This document shows positions 32,798-59,901 of a stretch of DNA of 64,000 bases, piece after piece. A program made the position numbers and the translations under genes. Numbering within the stretch: the stretch's first letter is position 1; each line of letters opens with the position of its first letter. Origin of the DNA: a virus; UHGV virus genome UHGV-0033085. One strand, 5' to 3'. The notes below the pieces were generated by a model. It searched no databases, had not been told where the DNA came from, and worked only from the letters and a program-made list of their open reading frames with translations.

Positions 32798-33115
32798 GTA
32801 TTCCTCCTGATGGCCGTGATGTAGGAAGGCCATCAATCTCCTCTGTTCAAACTGAGTTTTCGACTCAAAAATTACTTTAAAAGGCTATAGCCCATTACGT
32901 GTGCATTATCAAATTGTGTACGGCATATCACCGTACTTGTAATATAGAGGTCATTGTTACTTTTTTCAACAGACAAATACAAGCTATGTTTGCCAATTGT
33001 TAATCACAACCTACCATTTAACCTTTACACCGCAGCCGTAGGCATTTAGGCTATATCACATATAAGAAAACAAATTGTTTCAGACGATAATTATATACGC
33101 AAAGGGAACTCTCCA

Positions 33116-35986: not shown

Positions 35987-36029
35987 CTAATACTAGAAAA
36001 CAATTTGTTTAAAAAACAAAGGAAAGCAC

Positions 36030-46602: not shown

Positions 46603-46700
46603 CCCCTCTTCTCCCTGCGCGAATGGCTTAGTTCCCTGTTCGCGCAGTGCTACATTAAACACAGTAGTAAATAATTTGTTTTCATAACAAAGGATTAGCC

Positions 46701-50320: not shown

Positions 50321-52684
50321 ATGAAGGCACTGATGGTTCGAACTGACTTCTCACTTGGGGAGTCGGCTCTAAAAGCAGAAAACGCGGTGAAGATTGCCAG
50401 AGAAGCTGGCTACACCGCTGTAATTTCAGCAGATAGCATGAATATTGCGAGCGTTATTCCACTACAACGTGCCGCTGGTGACGACATGGCGGTTATTTGT
50501 GGTGTGAAACTAAACATTGTTGATGATCCCACATACGAGCACCGGGCTAAACTTGCTAAAGAATCTATGAGATGTATGGAATCATTAGAGCGAGGACGTA
50601 ACTACTCGTTTACCGCTCTAATTAAAAATGAGAAAGGATATCGCGACATCTGCGAACTAATGACGGCGGCCAACACACGAGAACAGTTCTACTTTGTACC
50701 GCGTCTCTCGCTCGAACAGTTGGTTTCTACATATGCCAAAGGCAACATCATCCTGCTTACTTCCGACATCGGTAGCGTGTTCCAACGCAACGATTTTGCA
50801 AAAATCATAAGCACACTGATTACAGCGGGTGGAAAAGACAACTTCTATAGTGTGGTTTATCCGCACCCTACCCCATTCTACGACCAGATTAACGTCCGGG
50901 CGATGAAAGTCGCCAGCGCATTGAAAATAGAGCCAGTGGCGTTCTATCCCGCTTATTACGAATCGATCGACGATGCAGACATTAAAGACATTGCGCACAT
51001 GGTTACGAACAACATCAAAATCGACCAGCCGCATCGTCTGCGTATCCCCCACCAGCGAGATAACGCCGTCAATGGTCGCCGCCATCTCCTTGAGGCGCTT
51101 AAAGCCTTCTCCGTTCGCATGGATGTGCCGGTAACAGCTGCAATGGCCTCAACAACGCAGGATACCATTATCGATGCCTGCACATGGCGCTGGCATGAAT
51201 TGCCGCCAGCACTGCCAAAGATGGCAGACGACGAGCCTGCAACGCTGATGAAACTGGCTGTTGCAGGGCTGCGTAAACGTCTTACCACAAAAGAGTTTGG
51301 CTACACACCACCTGCTTCTGAGAACAGGGTTTATGTTGAGCGGCTAAAGTACGAAATGGACACGCTGACTCGCCTGGGATTCTGTGGTTACTTCCTGATG
51401 GTGCGCGATCTGATGAATCATAGTCGTGAAACTGGCATTCCCGTTGGGCCTGGTCGTGGTTCCTCTGCCGGTTCTCTGGTGGCGTGGTGCATAGGCATAA
51501 CCAACGTCGACCCAATCCGTCACGGTCTTCTGTTTGAGCGTTTCATCAACCCTGAGCGTCTCGACTTGCCGGATGCGGACTTGGACTTCAGCCAGGCACG
51601 TCGCCATGAGGTGATCGAGTATCTGAATGAACGCTACGGCGAAGATTACGTTGCAGGCATTCCGAACTTCACCTACCTGGGCGCAGCCTCTGCACTACGT
51701 GATACCGCTCGTATTTATGGTGTGGAGTCCGCAGATATGGCGGTATCAAAAGAGCTGAAGAACGTCGAGGATGATAGCCTTCCATTGGAGGAGCTGCGCG
51801 AACAACTGGCAAGTCTCGACAAATACGCAACAAAATATCCTGATGCATTCAATGCAGCCTGCAAGTTACAAAGCCTTATGCGTGGCTTTGGTAGACATGC
51901 GGCAGGGATGATCGTAGCAGGTGTTCCTCTGACAGAACGTACACCGGTTGAACGCCGTGGTGACGCGCGTTGTATCGCATTTGACAAGCGTTACTGCGAG
52001 GCTATGGGCCTAATTAAGCTGGACGTACTCGGTCTGGCAACTCTCGATTTGCTCGATAGTGCAAAACGCTACATAAAAGAGAACACAGGTGAAGATATCA
52101 ATCTTGATGCCATTTCTCTTGAAGATCGCAAGGTGCTGGATGGTTTTGCTGCAGGGTATACACAGGGCGTATTCCAGCTTGAATCAGGCCCAATGCGCAA
52201 GCTGCTTAAAGATTTAGGTGGTGGAATTGAGCCAATGAGCTTTAAAACGGTCGTCGCTACAACTGCGCTCTTCCGACCTGGCCCGATTCAATCCGGCATG
52301 TTGGACGATTATGTGTCCGTGGCCAAAGGCTTCATGGCCCCACATTCCTTACACCCAATGCTGGACGACATCTCTCGCGACACAAACGGAGTTCTGATTT
52401 ATCAGGAACAGATCATGGCTGCTACGCGAATCTTGGCGGGGTTCTCAATGGCGGAAGCAGACTCGGTCAGGAAAGCGATCGGGAAAAAAGATATGGAGAA
52501 AATGAAATCCATTGGCGGCGACTTCATTAAGCGAGCGGAGGAAGGCTGGGTGACAGTGTCACTGGATGATGGTTCTACGAGAAAAATCCATAAAGCAGCA
52601 CGCCTACTTTGTGCTGATGGTGAGCGTCGCACTTATGCCGAAGCAATGGCAATAAATGCCGACATAACGAGCTTCGATATTTGA
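50321..52684 (+). CDS. dnaE: DNA polymerase III alpha (DnaE-type), N-terminal fragment; last about 45 codons non-homologous
   Basis: PHP-like N-terminus; core motif GPGRGSSAGSLVAWCIGITNVDP, LLFERFINPER, DADLDF; homology ends near 52546. Confidence 0.8.
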   Translation: MKALMVRTDFSLGESALKAENAVKIAREAGYTAVISADSMNIASVIPLQRAAGDDMAVICGVKLNIVDDPTYEHRAKLAKESMRCMESLERGRNYSFTALIKNEKGYRDICELMTAANTREQFYFVPRLSLEQLVSTYAKGNIILLTSDIGSVFQRNDFAKIISTLITAGGKDNFYSVVYPHPTPFYDQINVRAMKVASALKIEPVAFYPAYYESIDDADIKDIAHMVTNNIKIDQPHRLRIPHQRDNAVNGRRHLLEALKAFSVRMDVPVTAAMASTTQDTIIDACTWRWHELPPALPKMADDEPATLMKLAVAGLRKRLTTKEFGYTPPASENRVYVERLKYEMDTLTRLGFCGYFLMVRDLMNHSRETGIPVGPGRGSSAGSLVAWCIGITNVDPIRHGLLFERFINPERLDLPDADLDFSQARRHEVIEYLNERYGEDYVAGIPNFTYLGAASALRDTARIYGVESADMAVSKELKNVEDDSLPLEELREQLASLDKYATKYPDAFNAACKLQSLMRGFGRHAAGMIVAGVPLTERTPVERRGDARCIAFDKRYCEAMGLIKLDVLGLATLDLLDSAKRYIKENTGEDINLDAISLEDRKVLDGFAAGYTQGVFQLESGPMRKLLKDLGGGIEPMSFKTVVATTALFRPGPIQSGMLDDYVSVAKGFMAPHSLHPMLDDISRDTNGVLIYQEQIMAATRILAGFSMAEADSVRKAIGKKDMEKMKSIGGDFIKRAEEGWVTVSLDDGSTRKIHKAARLLCADGERRTYAEAMAINADITSFDI

Positions 52685-52732
52685 GAATTAATTTATAAGA
52701 TAAGAAAACAATTTGTTTAGTGAGTCTTAGAA

Positions 52733-53467
52733 ATGCCGAGTACGAAGTACAAAATCACAGAAGAATGGTTACGTCAGCGTTACATGGTTGACCTGATGAG
52801 AAAAGAAGACATTGCCGCCGAAGCTGGTTGCAGCAAGGCAAATATTGACCGCTTATTAGCCAAATGGGGGATCAGGCGCGGAAGCGCGCGGATCTCCGCT
52901 ACCCCAGCCTGGAATCGTGGCAAAAACAAAAATAATGACGAACGTATGAAGCGTCTCTCCGAAGCCCGGACTGGCACTGGCAACCCTATGTATGGGAAAA
53001 CCTCGTGGAATGCCGGTCTGCGTGCTGATATCGATGAGCGAGTGGCCACCGTTTCGAAAAAGCTAACCGGCAGAACAATCCGCGCGGAGACGAAGGAAAA
53101 GCTGGCGGCTGCCAAACGTGGAAAGATCGGAGAAGAAGCGAACAACTACAAAGGTGGCATCATCGTAAAAACCAACGGCTACATGATGCAGCTGGTTGGT
53201 AACAATGGCGTTTCGCAATACGAATACGTTCATCGATTGATAGCGAAAGAACGTCTCGGTCGGGAGCTACGTGACGATGAACATGTCCACCATATTAACC
53301 GCGATACGATAGATAACGCCCCTGGGAATCTTGTAGCACTTCCAGAAGACGCCCACATTCGCCTGCATAGTGAAATGCGTGAAGAGATATGGAGCTGGGA
53401 GCGCCAACGGAACTGGCTGGCCTCCAATGGGTATGAGTTCGTGAAGATTGATGAGGTGACTGCATGA
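52733..53467 (+). CDS. HNH homing endonuclease (NUMOD-like repeats + HNH)
   Basis: HNH motif HHINRDTIDNAPGNLVALPEDAHIRLH; repeated GKxxWNxG / KRLSEARTG-type motifs. Confidence 0.8.
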   Translation: MPSTKYKITEEWLRQRYMVDLMRKEDIAAEAGCSKANIDRLLAKWGIRRGSARISATPAWNRGKNKNNDERMKRLSEARTGTGNPMYGKTSWNAGLRADIDERVATVSKKLTGRTIRAETKEKLAAAKRGKIGEEANNYKGGIIVKTNGYMMQLVGNNGVSQYEYVHRLIAKERLGRELRDDEHVHHINRDTIDNAPGNLVALPEDAHIRLHSEMREEIWSWERQRNWLASNGYEFVKIDEVTA

Positions 53468-54633
53468 AAATTACCGGTGTTGTCGAAGAGAGCAATGGCC
53501 TGACGCACGAACGAGCCGAAGAAATCTGGAATATGTTTGAGAAATCCGGCGCGTATGCCTTCAACAAATCACACTCTGTTGCTTACTCCTTAATCAGTTA
53601 TCAATCTATGTGGTTGAAAACTCATTATCCCGCGGAGTTCTTCGCTGCTGCTCTCACTATTCTTGGCGAAGATAAACACCAGGGGCTGGTTAAAGATGCG
53701 CTGACCTATGGTATTCGCGTATTGCCACCAGACGTTAACGTGTCATCTAACCGAATCGAGATCCGCACGCTTGAAGATGGCAGCCAGGTGCTGTATGCGC
53801 CCTTCTCTGCTGTGAAAGGGTGTTCTGAGAATGGCTGCCAAGCCATCATGAGAGCGCGAGAAAAAGTTGGCGGCAAATTCGAGTCACTGGCGCAATTCGA
53901 AGAAGCTGTCGAGAAACGTGCCTGTAATAGTCGAGTGCGCGAATCGCTGCAAAAAGTAGGGGCGTTTGCATCCATCGAGCCAGGTAGTCTGCCAGCAACT
54001 GATCCAGAGCGCCTACGCGACCAGGCTGAATTGATGGGAAACCTTGTCATAGACGCAGTTAAAGCCTCACGTCCGTTTGAGATGAACCCCAAACGTTCGG
54101 CTGAGATTAACGTACTCATGACGCGGATGGCGGCTGAAATGGGCTTAGGTGATGAACTAATCCGCCCCAGCATTGGTATTAAGCCGAAAATCATGATCAT
54201 TCTGGACAATGCGAACGGCAATGATGCTCGAACCGGTTACTTTATGGAGAACGGATACGACGATTTTAAGGCCAAGCTGTTGACGGCTGGGGATTTGCGC
54301 ATGGGCGATCTCTATGTCACAGGCGTTTGCAAAAAGGTGAAAGACAAAGAAAAGGACTACACCAAAGACGAGATCGGCCAGTTCACCGACTTTATGCGTG
54401 AAGAGATCAATCTGGTGCGCCCGACCTATGTGCTGACGTGTGGTAGCCGGGCAACGGCATTGTTTAACAACAAAAACAAGCCATCCGATTTGGTCGGCAG
54501 GAAGGAGTATCTTCCAGACCTTGACGTTACTGTCTTTTACGGGTTTAACCCCAACATTCTTTACTTCAGACCTGAAGAGGGAGAACGACTAGAAGCGATA
54601 TTAGCCGACGTAGCAGAAACTATTAAGTCGTGA
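53464..54633 (+). CDS. dnaE: DNA polymerase III alpha (DnaE-type), C-terminal fragment
   Basis: Motif YAFNKSHSVAYSLISYQSMWLKTHYPAEFFAA; own ATG with GAGGTG upstream. Confidence 0.8.
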   Translation: MKITGVVEESNGLTHERAEEIWNMFEKSGAYAFNKSHSVAYSLISYQSMWLKTHYPAEFFAAALTILGEDKHQGLVKDALTYGIRVLPPDVNVSSNRIEIRTLEDGSQVLYAPFSAVKGCSENGCQAIMRAREKVGGKFESLAQFEEAVEKRACNSRVRESLQKVGAFASIEPGSLPATDPERLRDQAELMGNLVIDAVKASRPFEMNPKRSAEINVLMTRMAAEMGLGDELIRPSIGIKPKIMIILDNANGNDARTGYFMENGYDDFKAKLLTAGDLRMGDLYVTGVCKKVKDKEKDYTKDEIGQFTDFMREEINLVRPTYVLTCGSRATALFNNKNKPSDLVGRKEYLPDLDVTVFYGFNPNILYFRPEEGERLEAILADVAETIKS

Positions 54634-59853: not shown

Positions 59854-59901
59854 CGCAATTATCTTATTAAGAAAACAATTTGTTTAAAAGGATAAGAAAA
59901 C

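Follow-up and report, generated by a model that had tools for sequence, protein, structure and literature searches.

A DNA polymerase gene in two pieces on an SSU5-like phage-plasmid, with a probable split-intein relic at the break and a mobile endonuclease gene in the gap

Introduction

The viral DNA considered in this work, a stretch of 64,000 nucleotides of the genome UHGV-0033085 (hereafter the window), carries a dnaE gene, i.e., a gene for a C-family replicative DNA polymerase, that does not run through in one piece: two open reading frames (ORFs), each encoding one part of the polymerase, are parted by a third one that encodes a putative HNH endonuclease. The locus raises the question of what kind of interruption this is, be it an intron, an intein, or a gene in pieces, and of whether its two parts can still make up one polymerase. 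The answer that we favor, with a probability of roughly 0.7, is that dnaE was split in ancient times at the break point of a split intein that has since decayed and no longer splices, that the relic tails of this intein join the two halves, that a mobile homing-endonuclease gene, here called HEG-1, occupies the gap, and that the uninterrupted dnaE genes of the SSU5 type have been re-fused. DNA matches identify the host element of the window as an SSU5-like Escherichia coli phage-plasmid, the top match being the E. coli plasmid NZ_CP082122 (99.9% across the junction).

An earlier account of the locus, made without database searches and referred to below as the sequence-only reading, is partly confirmed by the present analysis: its ORFs, its domains, and a regulatory motif have stood, while the position of the break, the amount of DNA outside ORFs, and one reading frame had to be revised.

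The Two Halves and the Gap between Them

The upstream gene (ORF A, 50321–52684, + strand, 787 residues) has the PHP (PF02811), DNA_pol3_alpha (palm/NTPase, PF07733), and finger (PF17657) domains of Pfam, as befits the N-terminal and catalytic part of DnaE that the sequence-only reading had seen in it, and ends in an extension of 46 residues. The downstream gene (ORF B, 53464–54633, + strand, 389 residues) encodes the remaining fingers (FNKSH...), a helix-hairpin-helix beta-binding region (HHH_6, PF14579), and a C-terminal domain resembling uracil-DNA glycosylase (UDG). Its GAGGTG Shine-Dalgarno sequence, already recognized together with the downstream part of DnaE, lies 6 nt before the ATG, within the 3' end of the endonuclease ORF.

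The break had been placed at 52546 and 53494, and similarity to canonical DnaE does stop and resume there, as Taq Pol III alpha aligns with the uninterrupted homologue only as far as residue 738 of the latter and from its residue 788 onward; the actual discontinuity of the gene lies elsewhere, and consists of the stop codon of ORF A (52682–52684), a spacer of 48 nt (52685–52732, + strand), the endonuclease ORF, and the start of ORF B at 53464, which the endonuclease stop overlaps (ATGA). The gap between the halves measures 779 nt, and the spacer, whose core is identical in all sampled alleles, is its sole noncoding DNA, 48 bp instead of the ∼210 bp previously estimated. The endonuclease ORF was also said to be in a different frame from ORF A; in fact these two are in frame with each other and are separated by three stops, and ORF B is the one that departs from this frame.

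A Probable Split-Intein Relic at the Break

The residues that separate the canonical parts of DnaE are those of the 46-residue N-extension GWVTVSLDDGSTRKIHKAARLLCADGERRTYAEAMAINADITSFDI (GWVTV...SFDI; 52544–52681, + strand) and of the head of ORF B, MKITGVVEE (53464–53490, + strand). Both are conserved in every family member, split or fused, and belong to the polymerase fragments. The sequence-only reading had conceded that its interruption would fall if these 45 + 10 extra residues proved to be native; native to the polymerase fragments they are, and the gene is split nonetheless. What that reading missed is that they appear, from their sequence, to be the relic of a split intein.

The distribution of the segment is the first line of evidence. 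Every split gene has ∼55 residues of this kind, namely a tail of 45–48 residues on the N-fragment and a head of ∼9 residues on the C-fragment. A pattern scan found 11 contiguous distant relatives without the insert, and the alignment of seven of them shows that the whole segment, i.e., the tail (46 residues in the window) as well as the ∼9-residue head, is missing. The only contiguous proteins that have the insert are those of the SSU5 group, which are at least 90% identical.

The second line of evidence is sequence similarity. When a profile of the relic segment (A1, built from 12 sequences) was searched with hmmsearch against all PDB sequences, the top 14 matches were all Npu, Ssp, or halophilic DnaE split inteins (E 1.4e-4 to 0.017), among them 7qil (E 1.4e-4), the Npu entries 4lx3, 2keq, and 4kl5 (∼4e-4), and the Ssp entries 1zd7 and 1zde (∼3e-3); the next match had an E of 0.18, which is noise. 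The match spans intein residues ∼57–101; in terms of the N-part of the split intein (IntN), this corresponds to its C-terminal half up to the natural end. In hhalign, positions 4–44 of A1 align with Npu 57–97 at 91.5% probability (E 8.6e-7, 22% identity over ∼41 columns); the matched stretch of Npu was confirmed by the PDB alignments of hmmsearch.

The predicted fold agrees. AlphaFold2, run without templates, models the relic within a fused relative with a predicted local distance difference test (pLDDT) of 87–95 and the order beta-beta-beta-beta-alpha-beta, and the relic alone with a pLDDT of 82.8; for the stand-alone model, Foldseek ranks DnaE inteins of Npu or Ssp in all of its first nine places (probability 0.77–1.0, template-modeling score 0.58–0.68). 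An assignment of the N-extension to intein block A, at the N-terminus of IntN, was rejected, as the profile and fold searches both place it at Npu 57–101. Moreover, ORF A stops at the end of IntN, and ORF B starts where the C-part of the intein (IntC) begins: its MKIxxV may be compared with MIKIATRK in Npu, and the head is presumed to be the relic of the first strand of IntC. Sequence, fold, and a break at the IntN|IntC boundary all point to derivation from a split intein, and the C-terminal half of a DnaE-type IntN can be regarded as the homologue of the extension, on its sequence as well as its predicted fold. Since the tails would be a split-intein relic, the locus appears to descend from a "fractured gene" of the intein type, i.e., one with a split intein and an endonuclease gene between its halves, and not from a bare endonuclease insertion.

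Other members of the family have canonical split inteins with endonucleases elsewhere in dnaE, namely at the two sites GPGRGS|C and FQFE|C, and some relatives possess "middle fragments" of 198–201 residues that have a canonical IntC at the start and the relic at the end. One locus of a distant relative (L104, 634–6650, on a Logan contig of SRR24750912) has dnaE in three pieces, with canonical split inteins at both of these sites and with gap ORFs encoding 339 residues without a Pfam domain and a 247-residue HNH_3 protein; at the split site of the window, the dnaE of this locus is contiguous and insert-less.

An Ancient Split and Probable Later Re-Fusions

Uninterrupted dnaE genes of 1168–1172 residues occupy the same locus in SSU5, Cyrano, PhiR41_1, and CMS-2020a, and the sequence-only reading amounts to a whole gene into which the endonuclease inserted not long ago. 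The relatives speak against this picture, as the split is common to genes down to 33–40% identity and is older than this copy of the endonuclease gene. In Klebsiella phage-plasmids, the codons at which dnaE breaks are the same (ORF A of 787 residues, ...NADIVDFGV*; ORF B of 389 residues, MKIAKVI...), and the gap is occupied by HEG-2 (NUMOD4-HNH_3-HTH), which is unrelated to HEG-1. The 78 informative IMG/VR loci comprise nine with HEG-1, 12 with HEG-2, eight with an endonuclease-less split, and 49 with an uninterrupted gene. The homologues of ORF B found down to 33% identity are, in their great majority, genes that stand alone. These stand-alone homologues form ∼45 clusters (383–425 residues, 33–96% identity); the C-fragment starts 25–35 residues (mostly 32) before FNKSH in 38 clusters, and 35 of 40 heads start with MKI or MKV.

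All four distant loci inspected (L098, L100, L102, and L103) have an N-fragment of 780–790 residues and a C-fragment of 385–395 residues. The occupants of such distant gaps are a 242-residue ORF 46% identical to HEG-1 (E 1e-67), next to a C-fragment that shares 41% identity with ORF B; a 230-residue ORF 36% identical to HEG-2 (E 2e-42), with a C-fragment 39% identical; an ORF of 184 residues in L103 (3681–4235), without a Pfam match at E ≤ 1 and with a C-fragment 57% identical; and, in an endonuclease-less gap, a spacer of 70 nt holding two copies of the palindromic motif discussed below. The 184-residue ORF may represent an unrecognized nuclease family. On these identities, the residence of the HEG-1 and HEG-2 lineages in the gap is roughly as old as the divergence of the polymerases. 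These comparisons show that the split is ancient, of single origin, and spread over a broad phage family, and that the gap is filled, depending on the lineage, by HEG-1, by the unrelated HEG-2, by an ORF of unknown kind, or by nothing.

The uninterrupted genes fit into this scheme as later products. The relic of the fused CMS-2020a gene is 79% identical to that of the split Klebsiella genes, and the relic of the fused SSU5 gene is 66% identical to that of the split locus L085, while the two fused classes share 32% identity with each other. Their junctions also differ: SSU5 has five tail residues followed by an ATG at the position of the head Met, and CMS-2020a has no tail residues and an ATA at the codon of the head Met. 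On these sequences, the most parsimonious course would be an ancestral split followed, after loss of the endonuclease, by at least two independent in-frame re-fusions, by which the uninterrupted SSU5-type genes would have kept the relic as an internal insert of ∼50 residues.

The reverse course is the strongest competitor, although we consider it unlikely. It holds that the endonuclease entered an intact dnaE fairly recently, that the fused SSU5-type gene is ancestral, that the ∼55-residue segment is a native mini-domain specific to the lineage, and that its likeness to inteins reflects convergence on a small beta-rich fold. The uninterrupted close relatives at the same locus and the modest intein identity, 22% over 41 columns, are what it would predict, and it also profits from a bias of the protein homologue search, which returned almost only proteins of about the length of the query and omitted uninterrupted DnaE of 1168–1172 residues that are 93–96% identical to the query, so that counts of fused versus split genes from this search are unusable. 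This course has difficulty in accounting for split genes with homologous tails (DI..F*) and MK[IV] heads down to 33–40% identity, for two fused classes that share just 32% identity, each being close to a split class, and have structurally different junctions, for the lack of the insert in all deep contiguous relatives examined, and for sequence and fold searches that both rank DnaE split inteins first.

Two Halves under Selection

If the split is ancient, do the two halves still work? Both are under strong purifying selection, with omega at 0.01–0.12 for dS up to ∼1 in the split groups (0.02–0.11 for ORF A and 0.01–0.12 for ORF B), which indicates that the two-piece polymerase is functional. 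Both ORFs are intact in all sampled alleles, which come from E. coli, Enterobacter, Cronobacter, Buttiauxella, Klebsiella, and metagenomes, and the ∼45 clusters have kept the start codon and head of ORF B, preceded in the majority of lineages by a Shine-Dalgarno-like sequence. Together with tails that are absent from insert-less relatives, these features are those of genes in pieces, with ORFs that would be translated separately from their own starts; the two-piece polymerase with a freestanding HNH endonuclease gene in between, toward which the sequence-only reading had leaned, is borne out.

The selection and the intact frames leave little room for the proposal that the split inactivates the plasmid dnaE, that the halves are decaying pseudogenes, and that replication proceeds via the host Pol III. 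The annotation of ORF B by RefSeq/PGAP as an incomplete pseudogene with a missing N-terminus speaks for it, and we regard it as improbable in view of the conservation just described.

No Splicing of Protein or RNA

Even less probable is that the extensions still work as a split intein, active in spite of its unusually small size, and join the halves into a single polymerase by trans-splicing. In favor of this view, the arrangement is identical to that of fractured genes and the extensions share homology with IntN; nevertheless, N-extension and head amount to ∼55 residues in total, and a HINT fold needs at least ∼120. Every catalytic element of an intein is missing from the relic: position 1 is an invariant Gly and not Cys or Ser, blocks A, F, and G and the terminal (His-)Asn are lacking, the +1 residue after the relic is variable with no conserved nucleophile, and the only part of an intein present is the region equivalent to Npu 57–101. 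For want of these elements the relic cannot splice. A Pfam search of the fragment termini at E ≤ 10 returned no Hint or intein domain, and in the fused alleles the segment is kept permanently. The view of the sequence-only reading that this is no canonical intein was well founded.

The weakest of the alternatives, a group I intron that carries the endonuclease ORF, or a ribosome that restores a single frame by bypass or read-through, can invoke the frequent residence of phage endonuclease genes in group I introns, the precedent of T4 gene 60, whose bypass adjoins a mob gene, and the ATT codons that flank the gap, but is hardly credible given that an Rfam scan of 52000–54000 at E ≤ 10 found no intron (only a chance miRNA match), that just 48 nt are noncoding, that spacers of 65–72 nt with three to four in-frame stops remain after loss of the endonuclease, that every lineage provides ORF B with an ATG of its own, mostly along with a Shine-Dalgarno-like sequence, and that the 779-nt gap of the window holds a translated ORF. 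Group II introns were rejected by the same Rfam scan as group I, for which the sequence-only reading had proposed a covariance-model search, and translational bypass or read-through was rejected for the stops, for these separate starts of ORF B, and for the size of the gap. The HEG-less spacers measure 69 nt in Buttiauxella p1WJP83, 65 nt in the IMG/VR locus L022, where the last ∼16 nt of the endonuclease ORF are retained and form the Shine-Dalgarno sequence of ORF B, and 72 nt, with a different sequence, in the L085–L091 group; being 65–72 nt long, they have no room for a ribozyme core. A target-site duplication was also sought between the codons of tail and head, where 8–10 of 24 nt match, which is not above chance.

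The Endonuclease Gene and Its Mobile Block

HEG-1 (52733–53467, + strand, 244 residues) has the features of a freestanding HNH homing-endonuclease gene, i.e., an N-terminal HTH-like region, NUMOD3 repeats (E 2.7e-6), a C-terminal HNH_3 domain, a full-length match to phrog_21964, an ATG of its own, and stops on both sides, in line with the HNH/NUMOD-type endonuclease that had been predicted from the sequence. The catalytic core, residues 165–205 (EYVHRLIA...EHVHHINRD...DN...NLVALPEDAHIRLH; 53225–53347, + strand), matches PF13392 with E 1e-7 and 31.9 bits, against a cut-off of 24.8. The protein has few kin: sequence searches gave no relative of solved structure at E ≤ 1 and none above 41% identity in the phage database, and homologues among 5.8 billion proteins form only five clusters, all at least 88% identical, the relative with 46% identity mentioned above having been located only through its genomic context.

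The gene is intact in all eight sampled alleles, with dN/dS of 0.17–0.28, and the 787-residue ORF A is intact in the same eight. HEG-1 is present in 23 of the 143 E. coli genomes with this plasmid type, in nine of the 78 IMG/VR loci, and also in Enterobacter and Cronobacter plasmids, always between the dnaE halves. Compared with the uninterrupted E. coli loci L004 and L006, the window is ∼100% identical outside 52301–53560 and 47–85% identical inside; compared with Cronobacter and Buttiauxella the pattern is reversed, with 70–88% for the backbone and 92–98% for the block. The block, which comprises HEG-1 with ∼370 bp upstream and ∼95 bp downstream, moves as a unit between backbones, has identical boundaries on CMS-2020a-, Cyrano-, and SSU5-like backbones, and ends downstream at the invariant sequence coding for FNKSH.

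Presence/absence polymorphism among near-identical genomes, with co-conversion of the flanks, is what the principle of homing predicts (PMC2988022), and the block pattern reads as a signature of such homing, or at least of the transfer of a cassette as a unit. The comparisons show that HEG-1 is under purifying selection and is exchanged among divergent backbones with a fixed flanking block; its dN/dS of ∼0.2, the polymorphism, and the block transfer suggest that it is active and mobile. In the proposed mechanism, HEG-1 would cleave HEG-less or fused alleles in co-resident relatives and would be copied in by recombinational repair with co-conversion, and the block may serve as a weapon of exclusion or competition between co-resident phage-plasmids.

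A Putative Regulatory Motif in the Spacer

The spacer also holds the motif AAGAAAACAATTTGTTTA (52702–52719, + strand), which the sequence-only reading had rightly noted ahead of the endonuclease, and which is a copy of the phage-plasmid's own regulatory motif. Its form, AGAAAACAA(A/T)TTGTTTA, is near-palindromic, and the copy in the spacer is perfect. At up to three mismatches the window has six copies, against 0.11 expected, the other five being at 2968–2985, 33064–33081, 35994–36011, 46668–46685 (− strand), and 59869–59886. Copies lie 13–80 nt upstream of the starts of a 210-residue ORF, parA, and the dnaB-like helicase, cobT-like, and DUF7238/NinX-like genes. SSU5 (locus L097), which lacks the endonuclease gene, has the motif at the equivalent genes (15447, 19383, 27727, and 41846), and the motif is also kept in the HEG-less spacers of L005, L022, and L102; the HEG-2 gap of Klebsiella is without it.

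The motif probably serves as operator or promoter in a regulon for replication and partition. Because the spacer carries this motif, and because the motif is kept in the HEG-free SSU5, HEG-1 is probably wired into the replication regulon of its host element, with which it would be expressed via the palindrome. The + strand of the gap has neither a sigma-70-like promoter nor an intrinsic terminator, so that ORF A, HEG-1, and ORF B are probably co-transcribed. The 5' region of HEG-1 (52670–52760) can form a candidate hairpin that pairs the sequence before the AUG, a weak signal (dG −15.8 kcal/mol, z −2.2, 7 of 200 shuffles); the hairpin is reminiscent of those that sequester the ribosome-binding site in mobE and in the endonuclease genes of fractured genes.

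Neighborhood and Annotation

The dnaE halves are found next to genes for CobT-like and CobS-like AAA proteins, a gp32-like single-stranded DNA-binding protein, and a 5'-3' exonuclease. Directly downstream of dnaE lies a variable cargo spot, empty in the window, that holds HicAB, CspG, or a DUF4365 protein in different plasmids (e.g., L002 7356–8204, L010 4821–5036, and L011 5513–6361).

The UDG-like domain of ORF B (54270–54480, residues ∼271–339) matches PF03167 weakly in the window (E 0.0055) and clearly in the relatives P0024–P0073, and is found in this phage DnaE where bacterial Pol III alpha has its OB-fold, which is why ORF B appears in some records under the name "uracil-DNA glycosylase". 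PGAP, in the RefSeq records behind L007 and L010–L013 (e.g., NZ_CP082122 8463–9581), calls ORF B a pseudogene ("incomplete; missing N-terminus") with a start 48 nt downstream of the true ATG, and the PLSDB tables omit it; a functional C-fragment gene is therefore systematically misannotated. Clinical E. coli, Klebsiella, Enterobacter, and Cronobacter often harbor SSU5-like phage-plasmids. At present, annotation pipelines label the C-fragment as a pseudogene or as a glycosylase.

A Proposed Course from Fractured Gene to Two-Chain Polymerase

The following mechanism is proposed. The locus would derive from a fractured gene whose intein lost the ability to splice, and polypeptides of ∼87 and ∼43 kDa would be translated separately, ORF B from the GAGGTG Shine-Dalgarno sequence in the 3' end of the endonuclease ORF and perhaps by translational coupling to the endonuclease. 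The acidic tail and the mostly basic head would then form a non-covalent clasp through which the two chains assemble into a polymerase. The tail has a charge of −1 to −5 in all nine sequences considered, and 35 of 40 heads are positive. In the assembly of split inteins, an anionic IntN and a cationic IntC associate in a "capture" step (PMC11766414); the charges of tail and head mirror this step, from which we infer that the two polypeptides probably associate through the relic.

A more far-reaching proposal, to which we give even odds, is that a splicing-dead split intein has long been kept as a purely non-covalent capture module, made up of the acidic C-terminal half of IntN and the basic first strand of IntC, that holds a two-piece DnaE together, and that the family displays the full trajectory in living genomes: from an active split intein with an endonuclease, to relic tails with alternating endonucleases, to a split without endonuclease, to an in-frame re-fusion with a scar of 50 residues.

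Several points weigh against the reading of the locus as a decayed split intein with a mobile endonuclease gene. The similarity to inteins is short (∼41 columns, 22%), and the PDB matches are variants of two or three inteins; the structural test is not fully independent, since AlphaFold2 may be steered by the same sequence similarity, and the head, at ∼9 residues, is too short for a statistical test of its own. A His is conserved in the relic but does not line up with that of block B. The cyanobacterial DnaE intein sits ∼24 residues farther downstream than the relic, and the insertion points are therefore different. Contiguous deep relatives with the insert may have been missed, as the protein search under-reports long proteins, and frequent recombination weakens the arguments from dN/dS and from parsimony alike. 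Finally, the head in the window itself departs from the basic trend, its net charge being −1, and the assembly of the two chains and the homing are both deduced from sequence.

Should the proposal hold, it would suggest a route by which an essential gene can undergo permanent fission, and later re-fusion, without a dead intermediate. The tail and head (∼46 + 9 residues) would represent a natural minimal association module of a split intein, one that binds without splicing, and as such could interest protein engineers.

Comparison with Known Systems

A search of the phage-plasmid literature found no report of this locus. An endonuclease gene between the halves of dnaE is, by itself, ordinary, and freestanding endonucleases split other genes as well, such as T4 39/60/mobA.

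The closest counterparts are the fractured genes of phage and metagenomic replication genes, three DnaE loci among them, in which a split intein and a freestanding endonuclease gene lie between the halves (Dassa et al. 2009, PMC2677866). The window shares with them the order of N-extein with an IntN-type extension, endonuclease gene, and IntC-type head with C-extein, as well as the dnaE host gene, the phage setting, and control elements that go with the endonuclease, and its family has the canonical form at two other dnaE sites. It differs in that its intein is a relic of ∼46 + 9 residues without Cys1, blocks A, F, and G, or a +1 nucleophile, in that its endonucleases are of the HNH type instead of GIY-YIG and Vsr-like, and in its insertion point. 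With gene order and IntN-type extension matching and the functional split intein, by which the class is defined, missing, the locus is best described as a degenerate derivative of a fractured gene.

In Aeromonas phage Aeh1, nrdA is split by mobE, the tails are essential, and the authors speculated that tails and mobE might be a degenerate split intein (Friedrich 2007; Crona 2011, PMC3045599). Here, too, an HNH gene splits an essential replication-related enzyme, and the C- and N-terminal tails are absent from unsplit homologues; the enzyme is another one, and Aeh1 is a single phage without a shown link to inteins in sequence or structure, whereas the family of the window is large and has a detectable intein link, endonuclease turnover, apparent re-fusions, and tails with a putative role in assembly. 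Gene 43 of T4-like Aeromonas phages is likewise a replicative polymerase in two genes, 43A and 43B, parted by a seg gene in phage 25 or by an untranslated spacer in 44RR (Petrov et al. 2006, reviewed in PMC2988022), so that related phages have either an endonuclease gene or a short spacer in the gap. That polymerase is of the B family and not of the C family (DnaE), and the present locus differs further by residing in temperate phage-plasmids of Enterobacteriaceae, by having two unrelated HNH lineages in the gap, and by its tails, which appear to be intein-derived.

The fourth counterpart affects the same host protein in the same region, ∼24 residues from the FNKSH site, and provides the best match in sequence and fold, with the same IntN|IntC break: it is the cyanobacterial split DnaE intein (Ssp/Npu), reportedly described by Wu et al. 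in 1998. In cyanobacteria, each half is encoded at a locus of its own, an endonuclease is absent, and the halves are trans-spliced into one chain; the relic in the window is without the first ∼56 and the last ∼26 intein residues and cannot splice.

New in the present locus are a two-piece C-family polymerase without an intein, a detectable intein ancestry of its tails, two HNH lineages that have long alternated in one gap, and apparent natural re-fusions. If true, this reading would provide evidence at the sequence level for the degenerate-intein origin of gene-fragment tails on which Crona et al. speculated, and would link fractured genes, which are repaired by trans-splicing, with genes in pieces, whose products only associate, the locus being possibly a natural intermediate between the two.

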